In this document: one piece after another, positions 447 to 56,076 of the stretch
Position numbering within the stretch: position 1 is the first letter of the stretch
Layout of the letters: the number at the start of each line of letters is the position of its first letter
Virus record (IMG/VR): IMGVR_UViG_3300029288_004596
Span: 152,900 to 216,899 of that record
Source of the DNA: a virus
Lineage: Duplodnaviria > Caudoviricetes
Direction: 5' to 3' (one strand)
Length of the DNA stretch: 64,000 bases
The notes under the pieces: generated by a model
Database searches by the model: none
What the model was told of the DNA's origin: nothing
What the model saw: the letters and a program-made list of their open reading frames with translations, nothing else
Made by a program: the position numbers and the translations under genes

Positions 447-834
447 TCCCAATCCTGTAGCTGGAAGTTCTATCAGCATTCCATTGGCTGAGACCTATGA
501 GATAGATGGGGTTCCAGCCACTACGGCTCCCATAGATATAAACGCTTCTCTCACAGTGGGCTCTTCCACTATTAATAAGCGTTGGTCCACTAAAGGAGCT
601 TTGACATCTGTGCTTACCTTGGAGGCTCCAGTCACTAACTCAAGTGGAGAAGTTAAACTTTTAACTGATGGAACTCTGAGCGTAAAAGTTATAGCCCCCA
701 ATGATGGAGTTATACATTCAGTGACATTTAGACTTGTGTATAAAAGTCCATTCATGGCGGCCTGGATGAATCTTATAGTTCAGGCTTATCCCCAGGAAGC
801 GGCTTTGACCGTGCAGTCCTTGTTCAGTGGATAG
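334..834 (+). CDS. hypothetical exported beta-rich protein
   Basis: signal peptide MKKTLLVLALLLVPMICSA; AGAGGAG SD upstream; coupled to array ORF1 via GTGGATAG. Confidence 0.7.
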   Translation: MKKTLLVLALLLVPMICSAQVTATWERAGWTLKASYLNPNPVAGSSISIPLAETYEIDGVPATTAPIDINASLTVGSSTINKRWSTKGALTSVLTLEAPVTNSSGEVKLLTDGTLSVKVIAPNDGVIHSVTFRLVYKSPFMAAWMNLIVQAYPQEAALTVQSLFSG

Positions 835-1012
835 AGCTTGTGTGCTAGAGAATGTAAAGTATGAGCCCCTAGATCCTAGGGGTTTTTCTTATTGTATAGG
901 GGGCGAGTATCATGTTTTCTTTATAATAGATGGTGGCATTAGCGTCCCAAAGATTGTAAGGGCTGTGGAGAAGCATTTGTCATCTCCTATTATGAGGTGC
1001 AGGTTTGGCTAA
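827..1012 (+). CDS. RxxxG array member 1
   Basis: MDRACVLE...MRCRFG*. Confidence 0.8.
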   Translation: MDRACVLENVKYEPLDPRGFSYCIGGEYHVFFIIDGGISVPKIVRAVEKHLSSPIMRCRFG

Positions 1013-1178
1013 GTACTACGTTTCTGCCACGGACAAGTGTGAACGCACGGAGTCTATTATTTGCTATTCCTTCAGGATGGGGATGACTCCCAGCTCCACA
1101 GCCAGTTTCCTAGCTTATGTTTACTCCTTACCTGAGCTTGTCCTCAAGGAAACTGAGGTAAGGTGTCTTCATGGGTAG
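1005..1178 (+). CDS. RxxxG array member 2
   Basis: TTG start; ...DKCERTE...VRCLHG*. Confidence 0.75.
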   Translation: MAKYYVSATDKCERTESIICYSFRMGMTPSSTASFLAYVYSLPELVLKETEVRCLHG

Positions 1179-1311
1179 CGACATCTGCAGACTTGTGGAG
1201 TGCTTCATAGACCTCTTCGGGTACAAGGAATACTCTACTCTCTATTGGGTATATTCTTTCCTTGAAAGAAGGGAGTACCTCACAGATAAGTACAAGGTGA
1301 AGTATGGGTAA
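1171..1311 (+). CDS. RxxxG array member 3
   Basis: MGSDICRLVE...YKVKYG*. Confidence 0.8.
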   Translation: MGSDICRLVECFIDLFGYKEYSTLYWVYSFLERREYLTDKYKVKYG

Positions 1312-1447
1312 CAGTGATATCTGTGCGCTTATAGAGTTCTATATATATTGCCTTGAGAAAACAGATAGTGACCTCTTCAGGTGGCTATCCCTCTACCTTG
1401 ACAGCACAGAAGATACCACAGAGTTCTACAGGTTGGACTATGGATAA
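1304..1447 (+). CDS. RxxxG array member 4
   Basis: MGNSDICALIE...YRLDYG*. Confidence 0.8.
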   Translation: MGNSDICALIEFYIYCLEKTDSDLFRWLSLYLDSTEDTTEFYRLDYG

Positions 1448-1613
1448 AGAGTCTCTCGCTCCTAGGGATAGTTGCGACATTATAGAGAACTGTATAGACC
1501 GAGTCTGGAGCTGGGATGTAGATGAGAAAACCGTTGCTGGATGGATCAAAGTTCTGGAGGTCACCAGGGACCTCGGGTATATGCCGGATGACCTAAGGGT
1601 GGAACATGGGTAA
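1440..1613 (+). CDS. RxxxG array member 5
   Basis: MDKESLAPRDSCDIIE...LRVEHG*. Confidence 0.8.
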   Translation: MDKESLAPRDSCDIIENCIDRVWSWDVDEKTVAGWIKVLEVTRDLGYMPDDLRVEHG

Positions 1614-1740
1614 GGATATTTGCGAGGTAATAGAATTTTCTATCCGTGACTCCAAGAAGAGCGTTCTCTCCTGGGTATGGTATTACTTAGAAGCCTATCT
1701 CCCTTTCATCACAGACATGTGGAGGTGCAAGCGTGGGTGA
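1606..1740 (+). CDS. RxxxG array member 6
   Basis: MGKDICEVIE...WRCKRG*. Confidence 0.8.
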   Translation: MGKDICEVIEFSIRDSKKSVLSWVWYYLEAYLPFITDMWRCKRG

Positions 1741-1867
1741 CGATATCTGCTTTCTGATAGAAGCTTCTATTTATAATTCCCAGAAGAATATTCTTTCTCT
1801 GGTGTGGTATTACCTGGAGGTTATTACCCCTTCCACTTCAGATATGTACAGGTGCAAACGTGGATAA
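1733..1867 (+). CDS. RxxxG array member 7
   Basis: GTG start; MGDDICFLIE...YRCKRG*; close paralog of member 6. Confidence 0.8.
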   Translation: MGDDICFLIEASIYNSQKNILSLVWYYLEVITPSTSDMYRCKRG

Positions 1868-2006
1868 TGATATACCAGAACTAGTAGAGTATTATATATG
1901 CACACTCTCTAAGTATGACCTCATGGAACCTTGTCTAGTATGGCTCCAGGACTACATGGAGGATGCAGATAACAGGATGGATAAGCTCAGGGCAGACTAT
2001 GGATAA
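1860..2006 (+). CDS. RxxxG array member 8
   Basis: MDNDIPELVE...LRADYG*. Confidence 0.8.
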   Translation: MDNDIPELVEYYICTLSKYDLMEPCLVWLQDYMEDADNRMDKLRADYG

Positions 2007-2139
2007 TGATATCTGCGAGTTGGTGGAATACTATATCTGCACATCCTCCAAAGGAACTCCCACTCTTTACTGGGTGAAAGTCTATTTGGAAGAGACTATC
2101 CCTCTTATCTCAGATAGGAGACGGGCTACTTGTGGATAA
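1999..2139 (+). CDS. RxxxG array member 9
   Basis: MDNDICELVE...RRATCG*. Confidence 0.8.
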   Translation: MDNDICELVEYYICTSSKGTPTLYWVKVYLEETIPLISDRRRATCG

Positions 2140-2284
2140 TGACATTTGTGAATTAACAGAGTACTATATAGACTACTGGGTTGAAGGGGAGCTCTTTTCT
2201 CCTCCGGATGTTTCCCGCTGGATCCTGGAGTACCTGGAAGACATGAGAAACTTTGATGATCTCAACAGAGCAGAAGATGGGTAA
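2132..2284 (+). CDS. RxxxG array member 10
   Basis: MDNDICELTE...NRAEDG*. Confidence 0.8.
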   Translation: MDNDICELTEYYIDYWVEGELFSPPDVSRWILEYLEDMRNFDDLNRAEDG

Positions 2285-2417
2285 TGACATATGCGAGCTA
2301 GTGGAATACTTTATCTACAACTGGCCATTCAGTGAGCGCATTCTTCCTTGGGTGCAGTATTACTTGGAAGAAAAAGCGCCTTTAGCGTCAGATAAGTATA
2401 GGGTGGAACGTGGATAA
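2277..2417 (+). CDS. RxxxG array member 11
   Basis: MGNDICELVE...YRVERG*. Confidence 0.8.
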   Translation: MGNDICELVEYFIYNWPFSERILPWVQYYLEEKAPLASDKYRVERG

Positions 2418-2562
2418 TGACATATGTGAGTTGGTAGAATGCTATGTTTTCAACTTCTTTGAGGAGTTTCCTTTCATTAGACCATCTGTGCTCTGCTGGG
2501 TAATAAGATACTTAGAGGATCTAGAAAACTTTGATGACGTTGGCAGGGTAAACTATGGATAG
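2410..2562 (+). CDS. RxxxG array member 12
   Basis: MDNDICELVE...GRVNYG*. Confidence 0.8.
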   Translation: MDNDICELVECYVFNFFEEFPFIRPSVLCWVIRYLEDLENFDDVGRVNYG

Positions 2563-2713
2563 AGACATATGTGAATTAATAGAATACTATATAACTGAGA
2601 TCCATTTCCCTAAGCGCACTTACATCACCCTTAGCTGGGCTCATGATATGCTGGAGGACGCCAGCTGCTTGATGGTCAGCAACTACCCTCCATATAGAGT
2701 AGACTATGGATAG
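2555..2713 (+). CDS. RxxxG array member 13
   Basis: MDRDICELIE...YRVDYG*. Confidence 0.8.
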   Translation: MDRDICELIEYYITEIHFPKRTYITLSWAHDMLEDASCLMVSNYPPYRVDYG

Positions 2714-2882
2714 AGACATATGTGAAATGGTAGAGCATTTTCTAATTTATGTTCATCCTCATAAGTTCCTTTATGCCTCTAGACACTACCACATGTGTCT
2801 CTTATGGGTATCTGATGCTCTGGGTGTTGTGGAGGACTTCTCAGAAAAGGGCTATCTTTTGTATAGGAACATGTATGGATAA
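2706..2882 (+). CDS. RxxxG array member 14
   Basis: MDRDICEMVE...YRNMYG*. Confidence 0.8.
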   Translation: MDRDICEMVEHFLIYVHPHKFLYASRHYHMCLLWVSDALGVVEDFSEKGYLLYRNMYG

Positions 2883-3147
2883 GTGTTTTCTCCTAGATGG
2901 GCTAGCTGCAGACCTGTGTCGAACTATGTACATGGATGACCAGCTGAGGTGGGTAACCTCCTACTTCTGGTTCTACTTTGACATGATTCTAGTTGATGAT
3001 AACGGCGCTAAGTTTACTGTCTATACTCCTGGTTATAAGCATCTTAAAACCCTGCACTTCAAGGAGTCTGGTTTGTCCCTTGATCAGTTGATGGTGCTGG
3101 CAGTAGAATACTTTGAGGCTACCAAGAACAGGTGCAGGTATGGATAG
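2875..3147 (+). CDS. RxxxG array member 15
   Basis: MDKCFLLD...NRCRYG*. Confidence 0.8.
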   Translation: MDKCFLLDGLAADLCRTMYMDDQLRWVTSYFWFYFDMILVDDNGAKFTVYTPGYKHLKTLHFKESGLSLDQLMVLAVEYFEATKNRCRYG

Positions 3148-3292
3148 CGATGTCTGTGACCTTGTCGAGTGCTATATATGTGATCGTCTCTATGGATTTG
3201 GAGCTGAGAAACGAGGAGTTCTCGTCTGGCTCCTTTGGTTCCTAGAGGACTTAGATAACTTTGATGATTATTGTAGGGTGCGCAGTGGATAG
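3140..3292 (+). CDS. RxxxG array member 16
   Basis: MDSDVCDLVE...CRVRSG*. Confidence 0.8.
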   Translation: MDSDVCDLVECYICDRLYGFGAEKRGVLVWLLWFLEDLDNFDDYCRVRSG

Positions 3293-3560
3293 ATGTTCTC
3301 TTCTGGATGAGTTGGACTTAGTATTGTCCCGCCCCTCCCTTAGGTCGAATCCTTTAGGGTGGTTAAATAGCTATATCAGGTTTCGTTTCTATATAACTTT
3401 AGTCCACGGCGATAAAGGAGTTGTGGTTGTGCCTTTAGATAGCATTGTTTACTCTGATGTCCTGGGCTTCAAGGAGGTTGGGTTGACTCTAGATGAAGTG
3501 GTGGGGTTAGTCTTGGATTATTTTCATGTATCCTCGGAGAATAGGTGCATGTATGGATAA
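3285..3560 (+). CDS. RxxxG array member 17
   Basis: MDRCSLLD...NRCMYG*; paralog of 15. Confidence 0.8.
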   Translation: MDRCSLLDELDLVLSRPSLRSNPLGWLNSYIRFRFYITLVHGDKGVVVVPLDSIVYSDVLGFKEVGLTLDEVVGLVLDYFHVSSENRCMYG

Positions 3561-3804
3561 GTGCGACCTCGTAGAGACTGTGCTAGTTAGGTGTCTGGAC
3601 GTTCCTTGGCGTGTTGTAAGCCCTATAAACTACTGGCACTCTTATCTTAGGATTGATGTGAACCTCGAGAACCTGACTATGAAGCTTAACTATTTCCCAA
3701 AGTATTCAGGTGAGCTCTCTTTCCATGAGTCTACCTCTGTGTTCAATATATTCTATGGAAGGTTTGTATTTGGGCTTGACGCATACAGGTGCGATAATGG
3801 ATAA
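3553..3804 (+). CDS. RxxxG array member 18
   Basis: MDKCDLVE...YRCDNG*. Confidence 0.8.
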   Translation: MDKCDLVETVLVRCLDVPWRVVSPINYWHSYLRIDVNLENLTMKLNYFPKYSGELSFHESTSVFNIFYGRFVFGLDAYRCDNG

Positions 3805-4048
3805 GTGTGATGTCATAGAGTGGACCTTGGCTAGATCCTTAGGATTACGCTGGGAGTCTGCGGAATCAATGGACTACTGGTATCGTTACATTAAGATGAA
3901 GGCTTTTGTCCCTTCCAAGACTATGCTCTTTAACTATAGAGGAACCCACTCGGAAACCTTCTCTTTCTATGAGTCTTCAGTATCCTTTAATAACTCCTTC
4001 CTAAAGTTTATAGGAAGATTCAAAGACTATAGGTGTAGGAATGGATAA
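3797..4048 (+). CDS. RxxxG array member 19
   Basis: MDKCDVIE...YRCRNG*; paralog of 18. Confidence 0.8.
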   Translation: MDKCDVIEWTLARSLGLRWESAESMDYWYRYIKMKAFVPSKTMLFNYRGTHSETFSFYESSVSFNNSFLKFIGRFKDYRCRNG

Positions 4049-4277
4049 ATGTGTTTACTTAGAAGAAGTGCATAAAGGCCTTGGTCTGGGCAATGCGGCT
4101 AGAGCTGTGGGAGTGGTGATCACTGTGGGAGATGACTATGGCATGATAGCTAATGATCGTCCACTTCCTAGAACATTTAAGAGTCTCTGGCCCACTGATG
4201 AAGTGTGTCTGGATGTGTTTGGTCTGCTGGAACAGCAACCAGAGCACCCAGCAAAGTACAGGGTGTACTTTGGGTGA
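4041..4277 (+). CDS. RxxxG array member 20
   Basis: MDKCVYLE...YRVYFG*. Confidence 0.8.
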   Translation: MDKCVYLEEVHKGLGLGNAARAVGVVITVGDDYGMIANDRPLPRTFKSLWPTDEVCLDVFGLLEQQPEHPAKYRVYFG

Positions 4278-4431
4278 CAACGGAGATATCTGCTCTCTCA
4301 TAGAATATTATATAGCCACCTATTTGTCTGGGGTGTTTAGAGAACATGCTTCCATCCCATATGTAAGCGTATGGGTTGGTGATTACGCTAAGGAATTAGA
4401 TAATTCTAAGTTGAGGTGTGTCTTTGGGTAG
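4270..4431 (+). CDS. RxxxG array member 21
   Basis: TTG start; MGDNGDICSLIE...LRCVFG*. Confidence 0.75.
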   Translation: MGDNGDICSLIEYYIATYLSGVFREHASIPYVSVWVGDYAKELDNSKLRCVFG

Positions 4432-4561
4432 CGATATACCAGCATGGATAGAGTGGTATATAACCACCAGTTCTAACTTTCCTGCCAATGTTCTCCACTG
4501 GTATCTGGATCACTTCCTGAACACAGACTTAGGTCCATATACTAGGAATCAAATAGGATAA
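4424..4561 (+). CDS. RxxxG array member 22
   Basis: TTG start; MGSDIPAWIE...TRNQIG*. Confidence 0.75.
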   Translation: MGSDIPAWIEWYITTSSNFPANVLHWYLDHFLNTDLGPYTRNQIG

Positions 4562-4564
4562 GCT

Positions 4565-4720
4565 ATGAACTGTGATATCTGCAGGTCAATAGAATCTTGT
4601 ATACTTTATAAATCAAAAGGTCTAAGTATATCTATGTCTACTCTCTGGTATACTCGTAGGTATGTTGACACCTACCCAGAAAACTTGGATAACTCCAGGT
4701 TGAGGTGCTACCTTGGGTAG
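4565..4720 (+). CDS. RxxxG array member 23
   Basis: MNCDICRSIE...LRCYLG*. Confidence 0.8.
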   Translation: MNCDICRSIESCILYKSKGLSISMSTLWYTRRYVDTYPENLDNSRLRCYLG

Positions 4721-4853
4721 TGACTTATCAGAACTCATAGAGTGGTTCAACTCTTCCAGTTACTTTTATCCTAAGAGAGATCACTTCCATAACTACTTAG
4801 CCTATTTCATGGCTACTGAACTAGCTAGCGAGGCGAGGTGTGTATCGGGGTGA
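4713..4853 (+). CDS. RxxxG array member 24
   Basis: TTG start; MGSDLSELIE...ARCVSG*. Confidence 0.75.
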   Translation: MGSDLSELIEWFNSSSYFYPKRDHFHNYLAYFMATELASEARCVSG

Positions 4854-4856
4854 CTT

Positions 4857-5012
4857 ATGGACTATGATATCTGCGAGATAATAGAGTTCTATGTGGAGTG
4901 CTATAGGCAGCATACCTATGGGCCTAGGACTCTTCTACAGGATGTGCGTTGCCGCATTAGCGACTATCCTGATGAACTGAATATGCCAATGTTAAGGACT
5001 ATGTATGGGTAA
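4857..5012 (+). CDS. RxxxG array member 25
   Basis: MDYDICEIIE...LRTMYG*. Confidence 0.8.
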   Translation: MDYDICEIIEFYVECYRQHTYGPRTLLQDVRCRISDYPDELNMPMLRTMYG

Positions 5013-5142
5013 TGATATATCTGAGTGCATAGAGTGGAGTCTGAGTCTGTTCTGTCCCTGCTCTAGAGAAGGTCTCCTAGTTCATCTAGGGTATCTTTTC
5101 CATACAGAGCTAAGTGACTTCACAAGGTGTATAATGGGATAA
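5005..5142 (+). CDS. RxxxG array member 26
   Basis: MGNDISECIE...TRCIMG*. Confidence 0.8.
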   Translation: MGNDISECIEWSLSLFCPCSREGLLVHLGYLFHTELSDFTRCIMG

Positions 5143-5267
5143 TGTATGATATAGCTATCTGGATAGAATACTTTCATAACTATGGTTTCCCTGAGGATAT
5201 GTTTCATAAGCTTATCCCAGATGGATGGAGTTTCTTCGACTCCTATTGTAGGTGTGTGGCAGGATGA
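5142..5267 (+). CDS. RxxxG array member 27
   Basis: MYDIAIWIE...CRCVAG*. Confidence 0.75.
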   Translation: MYDIAIWIEYFHNYGFPEDMFHKLIPDGWSFFDSYCRCVAG

Positions 5268-5398
5268 AGTATGATCTTTGTGTGATACTAGAGTACTCTA
5301 ATACATTCAGGTTCTCCGTCCAGGGACTCTCTTATGCTCTCCATGTGTTGGAGGATGAACTCCACTACAGTCCTGTCTATAGGTGTTATCAGGGGTGA
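5264..5398 (+). CDS. RxxxG array member 28
   Basis: MKYDLCVILE...YRCYQG*. Confidence 0.8.
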   Translation: MKYDLCVILEYSNTFRFSVQGLSYALHVLEDELHYSPVYRCYQG

Positions 5399-5400
5399 CT

Positions 5401-5622
5401 ATGGATAGACCAGCTATATATGAACAGTGGATAGAGCATGAGGATAATGGTTACTTAATACTTTCTAGTAGGGTTTATCTTCCTTGGGAGGGAGTTCCTA
5501 GGTTGATGACTGACCGTATTATTTTCCCATCTCTTAGAACTCCACCTGGAAGAAGAGAACTTGCTAATAAGATACTAGAGACTCTGGATGGAAATCAGGA
5601 ACTGAGGGTGCACTACGGATGA
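5401..5622 (+). CDS. RxxxG array member 29
   Basis: MDRPAIYE...LRVHYG*. Confidence 0.8.
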   Translation: MDRPAIYEQWIEHEDNGYLILSSRVYLPWEGVPRLMTDRIIFPSLRTPPGRRELANKILETLDGNQELRVHYG

Positions 5623-5753
5623 AATGGGATGTCTGTGTCATGGTGGAATTCTGTATGGATCATGTGATATTTCCTAGAACTGGCCACTATGTCCTTTGTG
5701 TTTTGGAGGATGAGTATCATTATAATCCTATGTACAGGTGCTACTGGGGGTAA
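5619..5753 (+). CDS. RxxxG array member 30
   Basis: MKWDVCVMVE...YRCYWG*; paralog of 28. Confidence 0.8.
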   Translation: MKWDVCVMVEFCMDHVIFPRTGHYVLCVLEDEYHYNPMYRCYWG

Positions 5754-5755
5754 TC

Positions 5756-5896
5756 ATGGACATCTGTTGGTTAATAGAGTACTATATATACTATGTGGTT
5801 AGAGCTAATAATTCTCGGTGTCTTAAGTCTATCTTGAGAACCCTGGAGGAGGAAGAGTACTGGTCAGATGATCAGGCTAGGGTCAGTCGTGGATAA
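5756..5896 (+). CDS. RxxxG array member 31
   Basis: MDICWLIE...ARVSRG*. Confidence 0.8.
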   Translation: MDICWLIEYYIYYVVRANNSRCLKSILRTLEEEEYWSDDQARVSRG

Positions 5897-5898
5897 CT

Positions 5899-6036
5899 AT
5901 GGACATATGTGAACTGATAAATACATACATCACTATCATATCCGACTCTAAGCACGCCCTCTGTTTGAACTTTGTCCTTAGAAACCTAGAGGATGAGAGT
6001 TACTACTATGAGGATGTGAGGTGTGAGTGGGGGTAG
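5899..6036 (+). CDS. RxxxG array member 32
   Basis: MDICELIN...VRCEWG*. Confidence 0.8.
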   Translation: MDICELINTYITIISDSKHALCLNFVLRNLEDESYYYEDVRCEWG

Positions 6037-6039
6037 GCT

Positions 6040-6192
6040 ATGGGACTGGATTTGTGTGTGGCAATAGAGTTCCTGGCTAGTCACTCCAGCTATGTTGACC
6101 CTGAGAGATCTTATTCAGAGTATGTGTTCAGTTTTATTGATCCCCGGGTCAGACAGTTTAATAATTCTAGCATGAGGAACGTGAATGGCTAA
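6040..6192 (+). CDS. RxxxG array member 33
   Basis: MGLDLCVAIE...MRNVNG*. Confidence 0.8.
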   Translation: MGLDLCVAIEFLASHSSYVDPERSYSEYVFSFIDPRVRQFNNSSMRNVNG

Positions 6193-6373
6193 TGAAGACA
6201 TCTGCGAGATAGTGGAGTACTACCTTGACAGTGCTTTTGATATTGATCCATGTGATATAATGTCATGGATAAAGAGTCTTCTAGAAGCTGAATGGACCGA
6301 GAAATCCCCCATATACATAGGGGACAATGTGTGGTCTACTGTGTTGGATGAGTACAGGAATAGAGAAGGATGA
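6185..6373 (+). CDS. RxxxG array member 34
   Basis: MANEDICEIVE...YRNREG*. Confidence 0.8.
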   Translation: MANEDICEIVEYYLDSAFDIDPCDIMSWIKSLLEAEWTEKSPIYIGDNVWSTVLDEYRNREG

Positions 6374-6504
6374 ACTTAGATGTCTGTGGGTATATAGAAT
6401 CCCTTATAATAATGTCTAATGCTCTTTGGCTACTTTTTCCTATGGACCCTGAGAACATGCTTACCAGATATGATAGTCCAAAGTACAGGTGTAACAACGG
6501 ATGA
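6370..6504 (+). CDS. RxxxG array member 35
   Basis: MNLDVCGYIE...YRCNNG*. Confidence 0.8.
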   Translation: MNLDVCGYIESLIIMSNALWLLFPMDPENMLTRYDSPKYRCNNG

Positions 6505-6635
6505 ACCTTGATATTTGCAGACATGTAGAGAGTTATATAAGACTCTGGCCTCACATAGGACTCGATGTCCCTTTTAGGTTAGGTCATATCCTTAGATGTT
6601 TAGCTAGCCCAGGGTACAGGTGCAGGCACGGATGA
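6501..6635 (+). CDS. RxxxG array member 36
   Basis: MNLDICRHVE...YRCRHG*. Confidence 0.8.
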   Translation: MNLDICRHVESYIRLWPHIGLDVPFRLGHILRCLASPGYRCRHG

Positions 6636-6775
6636 ACGTAGATGTTTGTTATTATATAGAGACTAGTATATCCATGTTGCACTGGCACCATATCAGGTCC
6701 TTGGCCTTCCCTCACGGATTCCAAATATCTGCTGAGAGGATGAATGATAGTAGGTTCAGGTGTGAGAATGGGTAA
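6632..6775 (+). CDS. RxxxG array member 37
   Basis: MNVDVCYYIE...FRCENG*. Confidence 0.8.
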   Translation: MNVDVCYYIETSISMLHWHHIRSLAFPHGFQISAERMNDSRFRCENG

Positions 6776-6929
6776 TGATATCTGTGAAATCGTAGAGCAC
6801 TTCATCTGGCTCAGGTACAGGAATGGTCCAGAGACATACCGAGCTCCGTTCCTTGTAGCTGTGTCCATAGTCTTAGGGACAGAACATCATCTTGTGGAGG
6901 ATTATGCGTTAAGAAACTTTAGGGGTTAA
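6768..6929 (+). CDS. RxxxG array member 38
   Basis: MGNDICEIVE...LRNFRG*. Confidence 0.8.
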   Translation: MGNDICEIVEHFIWLRYRNGPETYRAPFLVAVSIVLGTEHHLVEDYALRNFRG

Positions 6930-6930
6930 G

Positions 6931-7071
6931 ATGTTGCTGGATATCTGTAGGATTAGGGAGAGACATATAATCCAGGTCTCTAGATTTAAGTTCACTTGTT
7001 CAGTTAAATTCATTCTTTGGACTAACTCTGGTAGGTTTCATAACTCTAACTTCAGGGTTTGGAATGGATAG
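6931..7071 (+). CDS. RxxxG array member 39
   Basis: MLLDICRIRE...FRVWNG*. Confidence 0.8.
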   Translation: MLLDICRIRERHIIQVSRFKFTCSVKFILWTNSGRFHNSNFRVWNG

Positions 7072-7074
7072 ACT

Positions 7075-7224
7075 ATGGATATATGCAAACTTATAGAGAG
7101 TTATATAACAGCATGCAAATACGATCCTTTCAATCTTGTGCCCGTCCTTCACTGGGTGAGGAATGTCTTGTCTTCTCCCTCTGAGTGCCCAGAATATATA
7201 TGTCATAGGTGTAAGAATGGATAA
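7075..7224 (+). CDS. RxxxG array member 40
   Basis: MDICKLIE...HRCKNG*. Confidence 0.8.
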   Translation: MDICKLIESYITACKYDPFNLVPVLHWVRNVLSSPSECPEYICHRCKNG

Positions 7225-7435
7225 ACCAACTATATATGAAGAGTGGATAGTAAGCGGCATCTCATGCCTTCAGCTTTCTGAGGAAGTGCATCTGCCTTTG
7301 AATGGAATTCCTATCCTTCCTAACATCATAGTGACCTTTCCCATAGTCCCTATTGTCCATAGTAGGAAGAAGTACGCTGAGAATGTCCTTCGGACTCTTG
7401 ATTCCTGTCAGAACCTAAGGGTGTATTATGGGTAG
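7217..7435 (+). CDS. RxxxG array member 41
   Basis: MDKPTIYE...LRVYYG*; paralog of 29. Confidence 0.8.
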   Translation: MDKPTIYEEWIVSGISCLQLSEEVHLPLNGIPILPNIIVTFPIVPIVHSRKKYAENVLRTLDSCQNLRVYYG

Positions 7436-7580
7436 CAGGTGCATATGCTCTCTAGTAGAGAGCCTTATCAACGATAGGACTATATATGGTCTCTGGTTAG
7501 GAGCCCTCCTTGAGTGGGCTCTGATAATACTGGAGACTGAGAATCGCCTGGATGATCTCCGAAGGTGCTGCTGTGGATAA
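7428..7580 (+). CDS. RxxxG array member 42
   Basis: MGSRCICSLVE...RRCCCG*. Confidence 0.8.
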   Translation: MGSRCICSLVESLINDRTIYGLWLGALLEWALIILETENRLDDLRRCCCG

Positions 7581-7737
7581 CTCGGACATCTGCGAACTGA
7601 CAGAGTATATGATAGGACAGTGGATTGTGTATGGACTAGACCCTCCCTTTCCTCAGCCTACATTCTATGGATATCTTCTTGAGATACTGGAGGATGACTT
7701 CTTTGTAGAGGATGAAGTCAGGTGTAAACTTGGATAA
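7573..7737 (+). CDS. RxxxG array member 43
   Basis: MDNSDICELTE...VRCKLG*. Confidence 0.8.
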   Translation: MDNSDICELTEYMIGQWIVYGLDPPFPQPTFYGYLLEILEDDFFVEDEVRCKLG

Positions 7738-7879
7738 TGACATCTGTGAGATAATAGAGTACTCTATAGCTGATTGTGAGGTCCGAGACTATATGGAAGG
7801 AGAGTTCATGGATGAAGTCAAGGAGACCATGGAATCTAACTTTCCTTATGAGGACAGGTACAGGTGCTTCCATGGGTAA
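7730..7879 (+). CDS. RxxxG array member 44
   Basis: TTG start; MDNDICEIIE...YRCFHG*. Confidence 0.8.
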   Translation: MDNDICEIIEYSIADCEVRDYMEGEFMDEVKETMESNFPYEDRYRCFHG

Positions 7880-8024
7880 CAATGATATCTGTGAGCTTAT
7901 CGAGTATTCTATCTGGGATTACTTTGACTATGTCACTTTACATGAAGGGTTCTTAAAGGATGTGTTAGAGTGGCTAGAGGATACCACCTCTGATGGACAC
8001 TGGTATAGGTGCGTAGATGGATAG
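7872..8024 (+). CDS. RxxxG array member 45
   Basis: MGNNDICELIE...YRCVDG*. Confidence 0.8.
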   Translation: MGNNDICELIEYSIWDYFDYVTLHEGFLKDVLEWLEDTTSDGHWYRCVDG

Positions 8025-8172
8025 CTTGGACGTGTGCAATATTATTGAGGAGACTCTCCAGGCTTGGATTATATATGGCGGTTTGAGAAACTATACATTC
8101 CTAGCTGAGGTTCAAGATCTCTTGGAGTGGGAGCTACTTTATGAAGATGTCAGCAGGTGCCGCTATGGATAA
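8017..8172 (+). CDS. RxxxG array member 46
   Basis: MDSLDVCNIIE...SRCRYG*. Confidence 0.8.
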   Translation: MDSLDVCNIIEETLQAWIIYGGLRNYTFLAEVQDLLEWELLYEDVSRCRYG

Positions 8173-8326
8173 CCTCAGCACATTCGATATCCCAGTGATG
8201 GTAGAGTCCTACATAGATAAGATTAGGGAGAACATAGAGTATAACCTTCTTTCCATGGTTCTAGTGGACATGGATTGCAGAGGACTGTACTTCTTTCTCA
8301 ATGCGTACAGGGTGTACTATGGATAA
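8165..8326 (+). CDS. RxxxG array member 47
   Basis: MDNLSTFDIPVMVE...YRVYYG*. Confidence 0.8.
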   Translation: MDNLSTFDIPVMVESYIDKIRENIEYNLLSMVLVDMDCRGLYFFLNAYRVYYG

Positions 8327-8498
8327 CGTATATCAGATGTCAATGTCCAGGGTTGTTGAGTATAATATACAGGCTGAATATAATATTTCTTCTCGCCCCT
8401 TTGGATTTCGTTTCCTGAGGGTAGTTACTTGGTATCTTTATAATAGACCATCTGGAGGAGACCTCAGTAATCCAGAGTTCAGAGTATGGTACGGGTAA
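8319..8498 (+). CDS. RxxxG array member 48
   Basis: MDNVYQMSMSRVVE...FRVWYG*. Confidence 0.75.
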   Translation: MDNVYQMSMSRVVEYNIQAEYNISSRPFGFRFLRVVTWYLYNRPSGGDLSNPEFRVWYG

Positions 8499-8501
8499 CC
8501 T

Positions 8502-8666
8502 ATGTTATATGCTATAGCTAGGGATCTCTGTCACCTTATAGAGCTTTCCATTAGGGTAACTTATTCCACTGGCATTGATCTTAAAACTTCATCGAAAATT
8601 GCTTACTTCCTTGACTGTTACTATGACTATTATAATGACTCTGCCAGGAGGTGCTCTCATGGGTAG
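8502..8666 (+). CDS. RxxxG array member 49
   Basis: MLYAIARDLCHLIE...RRCSHG*. Confidence 0.75.
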   Translation: MLYAIARDLCHLIELSIRVTYSTGIDLKTSSKIAYFLDCYYDYYNDSARRCSHG

Positions 8667-8823
8667 CGATCTTTGCGCTGGGGTAGAAACTTGTATAGGA
8701 AACTATTATAGCGCTATATCTGATGTCATCTATAATTATGGGTCTACTCTCAGGTGGCTGTGCGTATACACTGACAAGGTGATGTGGACCTACTTGGAAG
8801 ACAGGAGGTGCAGGCATGGGTAG
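8659..8823 (+). CDS. RxxxG array member 50
   Basis: MGSDLCAGVE...RRCRHG*. Confidence 0.8.
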   Translation: MGSDLCAGVETCIGNYYSAISDVIYNYGSTLRWLCVYTDKVMWTYLEDRRCRHG

Positions 8824-9013
8824 TGATCTATGCGCTGGGATAGAGCGTTGCATAGGGAACTATTATGGCATTGTATCTAATGTCATTTTCTATTATGGGT
8901 CTACTCTCCGATGGGTGGGACCACATATTAATAAGATTACATGGATCTACAATGAGAGTATGTGGGATGATTCTTCAAGTCGTTTGAACTGGTACAGGTG
9001 CGTAGATGGATAA
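8816..9013 (+). CDS. RxxxG array member 51
   Basis: MGSDLCAGIE...YRCVDG*; recent duplicate of 50. Confidence 0.8.
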   Translation: MGSDLCAGIERCIGNYYGIVSNVIFYYGSTLRWVGPHINKITWIYNESMWDDSSSRLNWYRCVDG

Positions 9014-9281
9014 GTGTGCGTTCTTTGATGGCGTAGCTTATGCTCCTCTAGGAGGAGAACTCATCAAGTTTACCATGGCTATAAAGGGAGTCTTCCCATC
9101 CATGAATATGATAGTTTCCAGCCACCCTTGGTATGGAAGAGAAATCTATCTGGAGACATCACGCTGTCCATTCATAAGGGTTCCTGTTCCTGGAGTCCCT
9201 CCTTCCATAGAATCTTTATCAGAACTATATGGGAACCTCATATCTGTATGTGTCCCGGAAGCTAGGTGTATCAATGGATAA
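9006..9281 (+). CDS. RxxxG array member 52
   Basis: MDKCAFFD...ARCING*. Confidence 0.8.
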   Translation: MDKCAFFDGVAYAPLGGELIKFTMAIKGVFPSMNMIVSSHPWYGREIYLETSRCPFIRVPVPGVPPSIESLSELYGNLISVCVPEARCING

Positions 9282-9429
9282 ACCCATAGACAAATGCAAC
9301 TGGGTGGAGAAGTATATTACCTTGGCATGTGATGGGTTTCTACGTTTTGCCTATGTGAAATGGGCTGTGAGGGATCTTGATAATGTGGAACATGATGTCT
9401 CGGATCTCTTGAGGTGCCTCTATGGATGA
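9274..9429 (+). CDS. RxxxG array member 53
   Basis: MDKPIDKCNWVE...LRCLYG*. Confidence 0.8.
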   Translation: MDKPIDKCNWVEKYITLACDGFLRFAYVKWAVRDLDNVEHDVSDLLRCLYG

Positions 9430-9589
9430 AATATTGACCCCTGTAGATAAGTGCTCTTGGGTAGAGATGTATATCAAAGCTTGTGTAGTACACTTTATTA
9501 CTCTCCCCGCCACTAAGGAGGGTATAGGAGGTATTCCTAAAAGAGACTACACCTATTGCTCAGAGTATACTAGGTGCTGTGGTGGATAA
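9422..9589 (+). CDS. RxxxG array member 54
   Basis: MDEILTPVDKCSWVE...TRCCGG*. Confidence 0.8.
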   Translation: MDEILTPVDKCSWVEMYIKACVVHFITLPATKEGIGGIPKRDYTYCSEYTRCCGG

Positions 9590-9743
9590 GGTGGCTCTCT
9601 TGGAAGGACTTGTAAGTTGTTACTGGTATAACTCTAATGACCCTGACCCTTCCTGGGTGCTCAAAGAGTTGGAGGATCTCTCTGAGGAAGTAGTTCCCTT
9701 GAGTCAGTGGGATGAGGACATAACGAGGTGTGAGTTTGGATAA
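9582..9743 (+). CDS. RxxxG array member 55
   Basis: MDKVALLE...TRCEFG*. Confidence 0.75.
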   Translation: MDKVALLEGLVSCYWYNSNDPDPSWVLKELEDLSEEVVPLSQWDEDITRCEFG

Positions 9744-9891
9744 GCCTGTGTGGATAGAGCTTTGGCTTACTGGGCTGTTTCCTTGGCAGGTAGATAGCAT
9801 GAAGCTTTTTATAGAGTTGAGGGTATGGGACGACTCCTATAGGAAACATACTAGGAAGGACAGGGACCAAGAGAGATGTAAGAATGGATAA
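9736..9891 (+). CDS. RxxxG array member 56
   Basis: TTG start; MDKPVWIE...ERCKNG*. Confidence 0.75.
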   Translation: MDKPVWIELWLTGLFPWQVDSMKLFIELRVWDDSYRKHTRKDRDQERCKNG

Positions 9892-10033
9892 ATGCGTTTG
9901 GCTGGAAGGATGGCTTATATCCTTATATCCTAAGACAGAGGATGAATACAGGACGCTGGCTAACTGGATAGCTAAGGAGTTCTCAAAACCTCATAGGTCT
10001 GCTAATCCTACAGTAAGGTGTCAATTCGGGTAA
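9884..10033 (+). CDS. RxxxG array member 57
   Basis: MDKCVWLE...VRCQFG*. Confidence 0.8.
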   Translation: MDKCVWLEGWLISLYPKTEDEYRTLANWIAKEFSKPHRSANPTVRCQFG

Positions 10034-10221
10034 TGAAATACTATAGAGCTTCAACTTACCCAAGAGATTTGCCAGCTATTCTAGAAGAGATAATAACTGA
10101 TGGCATAGACTGCTATTCTTTTAATGACTTGTTCTCTTGTGAACCCCATCTCTATTGGGCGTATAGGGTTCTTTGTTGCCGTATAGAACTAGATAGTAGT
10201 GCGAGGGTTAGTGATGGCTGA
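10033..10221 (+). CDS. RxxxG array member 58
   Basis: MKYYRASTYPRDLPAILE...ARVSDG*. Confidence 0.75.
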   Translation: MKYYRASTYPRDLPAILEEIITDGIDCYSFNDLFSCEPHLYWAYRVLCCRIELDSSARVSDG

Positions 10222-10232
10222 CAGGAGGTTTC

Positions 10233-10514
10233 TTGGATAGATGCGCTTTCTTTGAAGGAGTATGTTCCTCCAAGTTTAAGGACAGATTCTATGCTGGGAC
10301 TATAGCTTTGGTAGGCGGATTATCAGTAAGAGTTTGGCTCTCCAACACTTTCCGTCTCCCCTTTGGGGTTTACAACATACACCTAGAGTCTCACTGCGAC
10401 TACTTCCATATAGTCATACAGGAAACCGCTAATCCCAGGATTGACCTTAATGAACTATTGTATGAGTTGTTCCTGGTAAATGCAGGAGACACTGTGAGGC
10501 TCTTTAATGGATAA
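10233..10514 (+). CDS. RxxxG array member 59
   Basis: AGGAGG SD, TTG start; MDRCAFFE...VRLFNG*. Confidence 0.8.
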   Translation: MDRCAFFEGVCSSKFKDRFYAGTIALVGGLSVRVWLSNTFRLPFGVYNIHLESHCDYFHIVIQETANPRIDLNELLYELFLVNAGDTVRLFNG

Positions 10515-10677
10515 GTGCGTGGCTATTGAGAAGAATATTAACCATTACCTGGATGACTATCTTCGGGTCCACTACTTTGACCTAATCGGTCAGTATGCAA
10601 ACTATTTAAAAAGGCTGGGTTCTCAAACTTGGATAGAACCCTCACAATCAGGTTCTGTAAGGGTGTATGATGGATAA
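10507..10677 (+). CDS. RxxxG array member 60
   Basis: MDKCVAIE...VRVYDG*. Confidence 0.8.
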   Translation: MDKCVAIEKNINHYLDDYLRVHYFDLIGQYANYLKRLGSQTWIEPSQSGSVRVYDG

Positions 10678-10840
10678 GTGTGAGGCTATTGAGTTTAACA
10701 TCCTTGAATATATAGAGGTATACTATAGGTATGATTACTCCACCCTCTTCGAGGTTATAAAGGAAGTCATAGAAGATGTGCTTAGGATTGACTGGGAAAA
10801 TCAGGAGATCCTCGATACAGTGAGAGTGTATGATGGATAG
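10670..10840 (+). CDS. RxxxG array member 61
   Basis: MDKCEAIE...VRVYDG*. Confidence 0.8.
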   Translation: MDKCEAIEFNILEYIEVYYRYDYSTLFEVIKEVIEDVLRIDWENQEILDTVRVYDG

Positions 10841-11009
10841 ATGTGAGACTATTGAGACATCTATTGGTTACTATGTAAAGGACTATTTTGGAAATAGAGA
10901 CTCTGAGTTTACCAAATTTTACGTGTGGTGTATTGAGAAAGCAGCCTCTCCTGATTGGATTGAGTCTCGCCACTTACTCCTAGATTCTGTAAGGGTGCAC
11001 GATGGATAG
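10833..11009 (+). CDS. RxxxG array member 62
   Basis: MDRCETIE...VRVHDG*. Confidence 0.8.
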   Translation: MDRCETIETSIGYYVKDYFGNRDSEFTKFYVWCIEKAASPDWIESRHLLLDSVRVHDG

Positions 11010-11166
11010 GTGTGATATTATTGAGGACAACATCTCTTACTATGTGAACACCTACTATGTTTACGGATACAGTATGGAAATGGTTAAGGGAATTCTTGAT
11101 GAGGTCCTAGCACCTAGCTGGGTTACTCCTGATATGCCTGACTCAGTAAGGATAGATGATGGATAA
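11002..11166 (+). CDS. RxxxG array member 63
   Basis: MDRCDIIE...VRIDDG*. Confidence 0.8.
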   Translation: MDRCDIIEDNISYYVNTYYVYGYSMEMVKGILDEVLAPSWVTPDMPDSVRIDDG

Positions 11167-11335
11167 GTGTGTGGCAATAGAGAGTAACATTCAGGAGTAC
11201 TTATATTATACCTCAGGAAAAGAGATTGATGTTTATGGTTTAGCTGGGATTGCTCTGTCTCTCATCAAGGAGGTTCAGTCCCCTGACTGGAAAGCTCTTG
11301 ATCAGCCCAATTATATGAGGGTGCGCAATGGATAA
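11159..11335 (+). CDS. RxxxG array member 64
   Basis: MDKCVAIE...MRVRNG*. Confidence 0.8.
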   Translation: MDKCVAIESNIQEYLYYTSGKEIDVYGLAGIALSLIKEVQSPDWKALDQPNYMRVRNG

Positions 11336-11609
11336 GTGTGTTATAGTAGAAGACGCTCTCTTCTATGATGACTGTTATGATGAGGTTCCAGACTTCTATG
11401 GGGACTTCCTAGAAGGTCTTATTGAGTATGGCATTCGTATTCAGACTAACCTCTGGACTCATAAGAGCAGGTTCACATACTATAATGGGAAGCCTGGTCC
11501 TTGGTTTGCCACCAAAGGTCTGGATATCTGGGGTCTAAGGGACAAGGTCATGGGGTACCTTGTTGGGGTAGCTTATCTGGATCCAAATTTCAGGTGTGAG
11601 AATGGATAA
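11328..11609 (+). CDS. RxxxG array member 65
   Basis: MDKCVIVE...FRCENG*. Confidence 0.8.
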   Translation: MDKCVIVEDALFYDDCYDEVPDFYGDFLEGLIEYGIRIQTNLWTHKSRFTYYNGKPGPWFATKGLDIWGLRDKVMGYLVGVAYLDPNFRCENG

Positions 11610-11766
11610 GTGCGCTGTCACTGAAAGATATATTATTCACTGCATGTTTCTATATCAGGATGATTGGGACTCTGCGAGTACTGTGGTCATCCTTATTAAA
11701 GAGGTACACTCCCCAGACTGGGTGGAACCCGAGTTCCCAGACGCGTCGAGGAACTACAATGGATAG
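11602..11766 (+). CDS. RxxxG array member 66
   Basis: MDKCAVTE...SRNYNG*. Confidence 0.8.
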   Translation: MDKCAVTERYIIHCMFLYQDDWDSASTVVILIKEVHSPDWVEPEFPDASRNYNG

Positions 11767-11944
11767 ATGCACTTTCTTGGAGACAACCCTTATCTACTAT
11801 GATGGGCCTTTCAGACAATACCTTCTGAGTCGTTGGAAGATGTATAGGGAAGAGGATATGATTTATGTTCCCCCTATACCTGATGTTGTCTTTGTTCCCA
11901 ATAGACTTAGCTTAGATGATGAACTCAGGTGCGTGTATGGATAA
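11759..11944 (+). CDS. RxxxG array member 67
   Basis: MDRCTFLE...LRCVYG*. Confidence 0.8.
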   Translation: MDRCTFLETTLIYYDGPFRQYLLSRWKMYREEDMIYVPPIPDVVFVPNRLSLDDELRCVYG

Positions 11945-12116
11945 GTGTCTTATTATAGAAAGTGTTATCTTTCAATCTCTGCGTCAGGTCCGAGATCTTG
12001 CCAATGTTGGAAAAGAGGCTAACCTCTCTTTTGCTGTGTCTTATATTAATAACCATGGGGGCTGGCTTAAGCCCAGGGAAAGAAGGACAAGCGAGTATAG
12101 GTGTAGAAGTGGATAA
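11937..12116 (+). CDS. RxxxG array member 68
   Basis: MDKCLIIE...YRCRSG*. Confidence 0.8.
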   Translation: MDKCLIIESVIFQSLRQVRDLANVGKEANLSFAVSYINNHGGWLKPRERRTSEYRCRSG

Positions 12117-12402
12117 ATGTTCTATTCTAGAAGATGTCTTGTATACTGGTCATATCAATGACTGTCATACTCTGTTCCAGATAAGGAAGATTCTTCCCAG
12201 AGTGCTTAGCGAATACCTTGCTACTCTGCACTTTAATGCTATGACTAGGAAGGTGTACTATACAATAAACTATCCTGGAATGCTTTATCACTCTGTTGAG
12301 TTCGTTCCTGAACTCTCTCTTATTGAGGAACTAGAAAAGCTCTGTCTCCTCTATAAGGACTGGCTTGTATACAGTCCAGTTTGGAAGTGCGAGTTTGGGT
12401 AG
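12109..12402 (+). CDS. RxxxG array member 69
   Basis: GTG start; MDKCSILE...WKCEFG*. Confidence 0.8.
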   Translation: MDKCSILEDVLYTGHINDCHTLFQIRKILPRVLSEYLATLHFNAMTRKVYYTINYPGMLYHSVEFVPELSLIEELEKLCLLYKDWLVYSPVWKCEFG

Positions 12403-12438
12403 ACAACTAGTACAGCCTGTACTGCCCTGGGGATTGCT

Positions 12439-12606
12439 ATGTTCTTAAGTTTCTGTTCAATAATAGAAGACTACATAAGCAGCGGTTTTTATATCCGAAA
12501 GGAACACAACCCTATGGCCAGGCTCCGCAAGGGACTAGAGATAGAAGCTAGGTTTCTGTTCCTGGAGGAGGGTTGTGATGCCGACGTGAGGGTAGAGTAT
12601 GGATAG
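12439..12606 (+). CDS. RxxxG array member 70
   Basis: MFLSFCSIIE...VRVEYG*. Confidence 0.7.
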   Translation: MFLSFCSIIEDYISSGFYIRKEHNPMARLRKGLEIEARFLFLEEGCDADVRVEYG

Positions 12607-12862
12607 GTGCGCAGTCTACGAGTACATCTCAGCCTATGGACGGCGTGAGGTTCGTTATGGTATAATACAGTTTGCTCTGCATAACTTTGGTCCTGTATAC
12701 TGGGACAACTACTATATTGGAGAGCTTCATACTATTGAACTGAAGAAGGATCCTCGCTCTGTTATTGCGATTGAAATTCACTGTGGGGAGGGTGTTGAGG
12801 AAGCTGTCAACTCTCTTCTATCGAATACATTACCGCCCAATGTAAGGGCGCACTCAGGATGA
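12599..12862 (+). CDS. RxxxG array member 71
   Basis: MDRCAVYE...VRAHSG*. Confidence 0.8.
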   Translation: MDRCAVYEYISAYGRREVRYGIIQFALHNFGPVYWDNYYIGELHTIELKKDPRSVIAIEIHCGEGVEEAVNSLLSNTLPPNVRAHSG

Positions 12863-12866
12863 TGCA

Positions 12867-13598
12867 ATGGAAAAAATCTACGAAGTTATTAAAGCTCATG
12901 ATCACATGGAGTTGGCTTCTATAGCTAATACTGAAAGGGATACCCTTTCCAGGTACTCTGAGATCATGGATCGCCCACTGAATATGGCAGCCAGAGAAGG
13001 CTGTATAGACTGTTGCGCTACCCTTGTGGCAGCGGGAGCTCCTGTAGGTCATGGTTCTATAGATGACATAGGAGTTTTCTCAGCTCTCTTTGTAGCGGCT
13101 GGAGCCGATAAGTTAGAGTGCTTCAAGTGGCTGGCAGAGCATGGATTTCCTATGGATCCTACTCCCTGCTCCTGCGAGTTCACTCCTTTCACTTACGCTA
13201 TCTACAAGTCTTCAAGGAGCGTCTTTGATTATCTTATAGACAGGGTGGATGTAAACTTCTCCGCTCCAAGAGGATATCCTCCTCTCACAGTGGCTCTTCT
13301 GCATGCCTCTGACGCTATCTACTATGCCAACAGGCTCCTGGAAAAGGGAGCTGATGTTCATGGCAAGGACCAGAATGGGAATATCCTTTTCAAGAACTCC
13401 AACGGAGAAATTAACTCCATAAGATGGCATGTTCCATTTACTGCGGCTGCGGCCAAAGGACATGTGGAGATAATGAAGGCTCTTGTGGAGAAGGGCGTGG
13501 ACGTGCATGTCAAAGGATTTGACAGGGATGCTATGGCTTGCGCCAAGATGACTCAGGCTCAGGCGGCTATCAACTGTCTCAAAGAATTAGGTTACTAA
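12867..13598 (+). CDS. ankyrin-repeat protein
   Basis: PLNMAAREG, TPFTYAI, LLEKGADVH, PFTAAAAKGHVEIMKALVEKGVDVH ankyrin-like repeats. Confidence 0.88.
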   Translation: MEKIYEVIKAHDHMELASIANTERDTLSRYSEIMDRPLNMAAREGCIDCCATLVAAGAPVGHGSIDDIGVFSALFVAAGADKLECFKWLAEHGFPMDPTPCSCEFTPFTYAIYKSSRSVFDYLIDRVDVNFSAPRGYPPLTVALLHASDAIYYANRLLEKGADVHGKDQNGNILFKNSNGEINSIRWHVPFTAAAAKGHVEIMKALVEKGVDVHVKGFDRDAMACAKMTQAQAAINCLKELGY

Positions 13599-13608
13599 GG
13601 AGGATACA

Positions 13609-23341: not shown

Positions 23342-23537
23342 AATTTATGTTCCTGGAGCGCCAGTGAGAGAGGTTGCTTGGCAGCCTGGCATGACAGTGG
23401 CGGAGGCTTGCTCCGCAGCTGGAATAGTCCCAACAAACTATGATGTGCAGTTGGCTGGTTTCCCAGCTCAGCTGGAAGACACCATAGAGACAGAGGACGA
23501 CGCTATCACCCTGGCCACCAGAATCAAAGGAAACTAG
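23334..23537 (+). CDS. ubiquitin-like (beta-grasp) protein
   Basis: 67 aa, GMTVAEAC...D-AITL pattern, ends TRIKG-N; directly after E1. Confidence 0.78.
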   Translation: MVRIYVPGAPVREVAWQPGMTVAEACSAAGIVPTNYDVQLAGFPAQLEDTIETEDDAITLATRIKGN

Positions 23538-23870: not shown

Positions 23871-23878
23871 GAGATACT

Positions 23879-55954: not shown

Positions 55955-56076
55955 TGTTGTCCTCCGTCTTCTTCTTCCATGCCTCATGGATAGTAGTTTC
56001 ATTTCCCTCTATAAGTCCCAGGATCTCGTTTGTCTCTGGGTCCCTTATCCTTATCTTTTCCATTGGCGGCCTGCTT

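Follow-up and report, generated by a model that had tools for sequence, protein, structure and literature searches.

The C-terminal ends of a family of tandemly encoded phage microproteins probably bear two superimposed constraints, one at the level of nucleotides, as translation signal for the following gene, and one at the level of amino acids. The genes concerned form array B (827..12862, plus strand) in a 64,000-nt stretch of DNA, the window of the present analysis, which comprises the last 64 kb of the virus record IMGVR_UViG_3300029288_004596. Array B consists of 71 tandem genes for microproteins of 41–97 aa, which share an N-terminal D-x-C-x-x-h-E-x-x-I (h, hydrophobic) and end with R/K-x-x-x-G. 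Directly observed are this anatomy, a bias for the codon AGG at the Arg position, the location of this codon in the register of Shine-Dalgarno (SD) sites, the restriction of its substitutions to Arg and Lys, and a terminal Gly that the geometry of the gene overlaps does not force.

All genes of the array are encoded on the plus strand, in reading frames that rotate along the series. Four further members are located just upstream of the window, cut off from the array by three unrelated genes, which brings the family to a total of 75; the array itself spans 12 kb, or about 6 % of this jumbo-phage genome. The terminal Gly is present in all 75 members, and the residue four places earlier (position -5, with Gly as -1) is Arg in 73 and Lys in two of them. 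Elsewhere in the genome, a terminal Gly is found in only 13 of 156 long genes, and open reading frames (ORFs) ending with [RK]xxxG are concentrated in this array alone. Two ORFs (39-446 and 334-834) with signal-peptide-like N-termini and a 113-nt overlap in different frames directly precede the array, between it and its four upstream members.

In the family alignment, a variable region separates the helix motif at the N-terminus (D-x-C-x-x-h-E-x-x-I) from the C-terminal consensus [D/P/S]-x-[Y/V/L]-R-[C/V]-x-x-G. The D-x-C-x-x-h-E part, found in 65 of the 71 members, falls into a predicted helix which extends past the motif. Since its conservation is three-periodic, i.e., codon positions 1 and 2 are fixed and GAT/GAC, TGT/TGC, GAG/GAA as well as ATA/ATC/ATT interchange, the members appear to be real proteins under selection at the amino acid level. 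The paralogues share 59 % identity in the best pair and 23 % in the median, are saturated (and thus unsuited to an analysis of nonsynonymous versus synonymous substitution rates), and are old and anciently diverged. Most of the proteins are acidic (median isoelectric point of 4.9) and rich in Tyr, Trp and Cys. A short member was modelled by AlphaFold as two helices followed by a coil tail of low confidence; the low-confidence model of a 90-aa member comprises a helix, three strands and a further helix, and predicts a short strand for its last residues. Neither model matched a solved fold in Foldseek searches (in case of the long member none at E ≤ 0.001).

Judging from codon usage, selection at the nucleotide level is certain to act on the junctions. 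The original prediction, which had been made for members 22–39 (4424..7075, plus strand), the densest cluster of junctions other than 8-nt overlaps, regarded the AGG at position -5 as a SD-like site and proposed to compare the codons at the Arg and Gly positions with the genomic background. This comparison revealed AGG to represent 65 of the 73 Arg codons at -5 (89 %), as opposed to 37 % in long genes (p about 1e-20) and 41 % in array cores (p about 1e-17). Upstream of the 156 long genes, AGG peaks at exactly -10 relative to the start codon and GGA at -10 to -9, and the phage makes use of SD sites. The Arg codon of the 8-nt junction occupies -10 to -8, i.e., the same register as this genome-wide peak, such that AGG indeed doubles as a SD-like site. 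The best window for pairing with the anti-SD sequence starts at -13, and so spans AGG, in 28 of 52 8-nt junctions. Mean anti-SD duplex energies amount to -5.4 kcal/mol for the array junctions as compared to -6.2 kcal/mol for the long genes. RNAalifold detected no conserved RNA fold at the junctions, junction windows being no more structured than cores, Rfam yielded no match at the array junctions, and no meaningful excess of internal promoters or terminators was observed in the array; this fits one long coupled message.

The codons also support selection on Arg/Lys and Gly at the amino acid level. Those deviating from AGG at position -5 are AGA in seven cases (members 10, 13, 38, 48, 56, 61 and the upstream member U1), AAG in two (Lys in members 3 and 69) and CGG in one (member 9). 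All of them encode basic residues and all weaken the SD site; if AGG mutates in one step, ten basic codons out of ten are expected with a probability of 1e-3 to 2e-5, according to the transition bias assumed. As for the terminal residue, the original prediction had it that the 8-nt overlap forces Gly. This is not the case, since such an overlap only forces the last codon to start with G (Gly, Ala, Val, Asp or Glu): the 12 8-nt overlaps found outside the array in the same genome end with Val (four), Ala (three), Gly (two), Glu (two) and Asp (one), whereas Gly is present in 55 of 55 8-nt overlaps of the array versus these 2 of 12 (p = 3e-10). The second G of the Gly codon at the same time forms the first base of the second codon of the next protein. 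However, residue 2 is Asp or Gly in only 7 of 18 uncoupled genes and therefore does not account for the fixed second G. Gly is also retained at 11 junctions (five ATGA, two TAATG and four far or terminal ones), where the first two bases of its codon represent neither start nor SD site; its third base, where free, is used near background (chi-square p = 0.15). Upstream of the SD site, positions -8 and -6 are conserved, their codons alternating between synonyms (GAT/GAC, TAC/TAT); position -2 carries bulky residues (Tyr, Asn, Asp, Phe, His).

Five types of junctions are distinguished among the 75 members, i.e., 8-nt overlaps (55), ATGA overlaps (five), TAATG overlaps (two), gaps of 1–3 nt (nine) and far or terminal junctions (four); all coordinates given in the following refer to the plus strand. 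In the standard 8-nt junction, exemplified at 1989..2006, Arg (AGG) is followed by three codons, Gly (GGA) and TAA, with the next ATG at 1999 lying inside. Gaps of 3 nt occur between members 22/23 (4544..4567, gap 4561/4565; Gly codon GGA at -9 of the next ATG), 24/25 (4836..4859, gap 4853/4857; GGG), 32/33 (6019..6042, gap 6036/6040; best SD site taking in the Gly codon), 39/40 (7054..7077, gap 7071/7075) and 48/49 (8481..8504, gap 8498/8502; Arg codon AGA). Gaps of 2 nt are found between members 28/29 (5381..5403, gap 5398/5401; start set at ATG 5401 by likeness to member 41), 30/31 (5736..5758, gap 5753/5756; best SD site formed by a GGGGG run including the Gly codon, -9.7 kcal/mol) and 31/32 (5879..5901, gap 5896/5899), and a 1-nt gap between members 38/39 (6912..6933, gap 6929/6931; Arg codon AGA, Gly codon GGT). 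The 4-nt overlap ATGA connects members 27/28 (5250..5267, overlap from 5264; GGA) and 29/30 (5605..5622, overlap from 5619) as well as, consecutively, members 34/35, 35/36 and 36/37 (6356..6635, overlaps from 6370, 6501 and 6632). The genes at these three consecutive junctions are only ~30–39 % identical to each other, and all of them retain AGG…GGA. The 1-nt overlap TAATG is present between members 26/27 (5125..5144, overlap at 5142; GGA) and 57/58 (10016..10035, overlap at 10033).

At junction 58/59 (10204..10240), the Gly codon GGC is followed by a core-less ORF of eight codons (10214-10240), which consists of two junction halves only, contains AGGAGG, ends itself with R-x-x-x-G and has an 8-nt overlap on both sides. 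This ORF shows that the junction module can exist without a protein body; it is probably the product of a junction-to-junction deletion that would still relay ribosomes. The tail of member 69 (junction 69/70, 12385..12441) reads Lys (AAG)-x-x-x-Gly (GGG) and is followed by a 36-nt spacer, with TTG in the position of the old 8-nt overlap. This TTG opens a short ORF (12395-12448), which runs into the start of member 70 and is possibly the remnant of a lost member. The last member (71) keeps the R-x-x-x-G tail (12845..12869), the next gene, 4 nt further on, being an unrelated ankyrin gene.

The coordinates, codons and member numbers on which the original prediction was based proved correct throughout, including AGA or CGG as Arg codon in members 9, 10, 13, 38, 48, 56 and 61; two gaps (5896/5899 and 7071/7075) had not been listed. 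Likewise, retention of Gly with GGA, GGG and GGT codons at junctions other than 8-nt overlaps was confirmed, with GGC to be added.

Taken together, these findings are probably best accounted for by 75 tandemly duplicated, anciently diverged microprotein genes which would share a single long polycistronic message and be coupled to one another in translation. The 3′ end of a gene, with five codons (AGG, three free ones and GGR) and the stop, would then act as a compact module for translating the gene behind it. In case of the 8-nt overlap, AGG would serve as SD core at -10, and the next start codon ends with the first G of the Gly codon; where the start is shifted to 1–3 nt past the stop, the Gly codon (GGR) would assume the SD position. 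The same residues would also be held as amino acids, -5 tolerating only Arg or Lys and -1 only Gly, presumably as part of a disordered C-terminal tail of eight residues, [D/P/S]-x-[Y/V/L]-R-[C/V]-x-x-G-COOH. This tail and the conserved helix at the N-terminus could make up a constant handle around a hypervariable core. One may tentatively speculate that the tail acts as a docking tag for a shared trans-acting partner, e.g., the products of the ankyrin, MoxR and VWA-peptidase genes following the array, even though such a function is rather doubtful. The dual coding of the junction, as originally proposed, is thus backed by codon evidence on both sides, whereas the functional C-terminal tag that formed part of this proposal is not shown by any of the present data.

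Several observations weigh against a joint action of both constraints. In the gap junctions, the next start is located 10–11 nt further downstream, which places the Gly codon at -9 to -7, i.e., in the SD position, and for six of the nine gaps the most favourable anti-SD pairing takes in this codon (twice as GGGGG, -9.7 kcal/mol). Therefore, these junctions do not separate the needs of the protein from those of the signal, and the original argument, in which retention under altered geometry suggests selection on the protein, is weaker than it had been put. Among the four far or terminal junctions, three have retained ATG, TTG or GTG in the old overlap position and may be relics of 8-nt junctions which have lost their partner. 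Moreover, AGG is present at 12 of the 14 junctions whose Arg codon lies at least 14 nt from the next start or which lack a next gene; the junctions with AGG at too large a distance for a SD site include gap and partnerless ones, e.g., those at 4544, 5736, 6019, 7054 and 12845. Either the geometries concerned are of recent origin or AGG fulfils an additional function at the nucleotide level; both weaken the inference from changed geometry. The about 18 changed junctions originally adduced as evidence reduce to no more than about 11 independent events when parsimony is applied to a weak tree, and the informative junctions number only 11, with the ATGA ones forming two duplicated clusters. Cys or Val at position -4 is probably and most simply explained by TG or GT extending AGG towards AGGTG. 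In case of Cys, this is suggested by its lacking co-occurrence with the N-terminal Cys (Fisher p = 0.76), which also led to rejection of a disulfide or metal site pairing the two residues. Finally, none of the results pointed to a partner for the tail, and the collections searched yielded no homologous array.

Alternatively, the motif might be a translation signal only, with R-x-x-x-G as by-product of AGG (SD site) and GG (start overlap or substitute SD site), duplicated along with the genes and leaving the protein end functionless. Such a signal would explain the strong AGG bias, the exact coincidence of its register with the SD peak, the use of the Gly codon as SD site in gap junctions and the core-less relay ORF at 10214-10240, and a second array in the genome (see below) likewise has a conserved C-terminus over the start region of the next gene. 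It is nevertheless unlikely, since ten out of ten non-AGG codons remained basic despite a weaker SD site and only Gly is found where the geometry permits Ala, Val, Asp or Glu. Furthermore, Gly persists at the ATGA and TAATG junctions, with GG being neither SD site nor start, and the conservation of positions -8 and -6 is accompanied by synonymous variation. Selection on amino acids could, on the other hand, operate without any tag on the finished protein, if the tail acted in cis as nascent chain: with the stop codon reached, the terminal Gly on its tRNA in the P site, together with the Arg four residues earlier, would slow termination, hold the ribosome over the next start and thereby enforce 1:1 coupling. 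Where known peptides arrest translation or stall its termination, this hinges on the residue at the P site and on residues a few places earlier; the efficiency of release factors, too, is influenced by the C-terminal residues. This idea needs no partner and agrees with conservation being limited to the last 5–8 residues in every junction geometry. However, the last member as well as the member before the 36-nt spacer keep the tail without anything to couple, no resemblance to a known arrest peptide turned up (no search aimed at it was made), and a cis-acting tail is considered quite improbable.

Uniform ends could also result from concerted evolution, i.e., from recombination or gene conversion at the junctions instead of selection on each copy. 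Members 45 and 51 have unrelated bodies, yet their final 27 nt (7998-8024 and 8987-9013) agree at 24 positions, and the core-less ORF connects one junction to another. Member 51 otherwise resembles member 50, and its tail match with member 45 is a sign of junction recombination. Yet the variable positions of the 27-nt tails are on average only 31 % identical, synonymous codons vary freely in the N-terminal motif and geometries differ between junctions, which indicates occasional and not general homogenisation. In view of the deep divergence of the members and the low identity at the variable tail positions, neither recency nor general gene conversion underlies the invariance, and concerted evolution as its cause is hardly credible.

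No homologue of the array family was apparent outside this phage in any of the collections searched. Pfam and PHROGs yielded no matches, and a profile search of 5.8 billion proteins retrieved the phage's own proteins only. A HMMER profile matched 11 own proteins and one unrelated repeat protein among 1.84 billion representatives. Searches of IMG/VR with junction DNA patterns produced single chance matches, none of them fitting the family profile, a degenerate N-terminal pattern retrieved no confirmed relative from the JGI metagenomes, an index search for look-alike stretches found none, and nothing usable came from the ESM Atlas.

By their sequence, the array junctions would belong to a known kind, namely translationally coupled overlapping genes with a dual-coded 3′ end. 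About 15 % of the adjacent ORF pairs of E. coli overlap (PMC5373646). As in translational coupling of, e.g., trpB-trpA, the ORFs of the array are located on the same strand, are chained by 1-, 4- or 8-nt overlaps and carry a purine-rich SD site in the last codons of the upstream gene, such that the 3′ end is dual-coded. Unlike there, the module of the phage is repeated 75 times in one fixed register, fixing two residues per protein, and these residues are constrained as amino acids too. With respect to the proteins, T4-type phages possess small internal proteins, encoded in a hypervariable locus, which have in common a short constant sequence at the N-terminus that targets them to the capsid and is cleaved after Glu. 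The array proteins are likewise small phage proteins whose bodies vary greatly while a short terminal peptide is constant, and hydrophobic-x-Glu also occurs in their N-terminal motif, there as part of a predicted helix running on past it; they differ in copy number (75 versus few) and in being constant at both ends. T4- or HK97-type prohead protease and gp23 (PF03420, PF04586, PF07068) were not detected, which is no evidence for their absence, since two of the three controls matched nowhere.

Precursor libraries of ribosomally synthesized and post-translationally modified peptides (RiPPs), e.g., the prochlorosins, combine a constant recognition part with a hypervariable core. The array likewise comprises many paralogues with constant recognition-like ends and variable, Cys-rich cores, but its members are predicted to fold and both of their ends are constant. 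No RiPP maturation enzyme adjoins the array or was found among the proteins scanned, the neighbours being ankyrin, AAA and DUF2201 proteins.

In the cGAS/Cap2 system of cyclic oligonucleotide-based antiphage signaling systems (CBASS), ubiquitin-like conjugation proceeds via a single C-terminal Gly on a protein lacking the β-grasp fold (PMC10097602). The array proteins resemble this system in their invariant C-terminal Gly, flexible tail, variable penultimate residues and missing β-grasp, and the phage encodes an E1-like enzyme. In contrast to that system, the E1 gene is located 10 kb from the array, between a JAB-like gene and a ubiquitin-like gene of its own. Ubiquitin-like modifiers are characterized by a β-grasp fold, which neither of the two AlphaFold models shows, and no cognate E1 enzyme is encoded alongside the array. 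Such modifiers usually end with an exposed Gly-Gly, as compared to a single Gly behind the bulky position -2 in the array, though substrates with a single Gly are known (PMC10097602). It is highly unlikely that the tail represents an address for an E1-type adenylating enzyme, be it that of the phage module or a Cap2- or Bil-type E1 enzyme of the host, with the members as 75 conjugatable or decoy mini-modifiers.

The E1-like enzyme is encoded in a three-gene module (21922-23537, plus strand) for a 252-aa JAMM-like protein, a 223-aa ThiF-family E1-like enzyme (22670-23341) and a 67-aa ThiS/MoaD-like protein. The first of these contains a H-x-H…S-x-x-D motif and weakly matches Prok-JAB, and the ubiquitin-like third one ends with K-G-N. 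The same gene order, with the small protein again ending with K-G-N, is present in other large uncultured phages (L123, L124, L125) without an array. A tie between the array and the E1 gene was therefore rejected, the homologues in other large phages keeping their JAB-like and ubiquitin-like neighbours in the absence of an array. The module is directly followed by a gene for a GroES-like co-chaperonin (23568-23870) and a 500-aa gene (23798-25300) without family match.

The repetition of one 18-nt module 75 times, in five junction geometries and within a single genome, provides an unusually clean natural experiment on dual coding and allows constraints at the levels of signal and protein to be told apart by ordinary reporter assays. 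The phage spends 12 kb on orphan microproteins with fixed ends and hypervariable cores that have no relative among 1.8 billion protein clusters. If a common machine does read the fixed ends as a handle, the array would constitute a diversified protein library of a kind undescribed for phages. If, by contrast, the fixed ends are no handle, the array would illustrate how strongly translation signals shape protein termini and would caution against taking conserved terminal residues in overlapping genes as functional motifs.

The array is directly followed by genes for an ankyrin-repeat protein, a MoxR-type AAA ATPase and a metallopeptidase-VWA (DUF2201) protein (12867..15818, plus strand), without a terminator-like site of note in between. 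A specific tie of the array to the MoxR/DUF2201 pair was dismissed, since N4-like and other phages that lack arrays commonly encode this pair.

A second orphan array is located upstream of the window (L127:5683-17855; genome 135.4–147.7 kb). It comprises ~27 genes for proteins of 113–181 aa, which start with M-[K/N]-[I/V]-[E/K]-D, and end with G-[D/N]-[Y/W/F/L]-E-E. Adjacent genes overlap by ATGA or GTGA, the series is interrupted by an RNA ligase gene, and no match was obtained in Pfam. Its last residues are kept with synonymous GAA/GAG variation, though the next start needs only one of these bases, which hints at family-specific C-terminal tails as a theme in this phage. Five of six neighbouring genes at L127:66-2593 (genome 129.9–132.4 kb) end with I-E-Y, F-D-Y, F-D-Y, Y-E-Y and R-E-Y, respectively, the exception being L127:590-1132; the six genes may represent a third neighbour group sharing a C-terminal signature. 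Just before this group, another ankyrin-like gene is found (genome 128036-128686).

The virus record of 216,899 bp is ~93 % complete and harbours genes for ribonucleotide reductase, family A DNA polymerase, UvrD helicase, RecA, a sigma factor, SSB and GroES; from this gene content, it represents a tailed phage, large and uncultured. Identity of its proteins to others in the collections compared does not exceed 31–42 %, with 42 % identity to the closest homologue in case of the AAA protein and ≤31 % to the enzymes of cultured phages in case of the DNA polymerase. Searches against cultured phages with blastn yielded no match, and the sole other matching contig (L002) represents the same phage (100 % identity). 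Towards the end of the window, coding strand and GC skew flip at ~54.6 kb, followed by a minus-strand block (54795-63932) which includes genes for a DegT-type aminotransferase and a thiamine-pyrophosphate enzyme, i.e., genes of the sugar-modification type that are unusual in phages.

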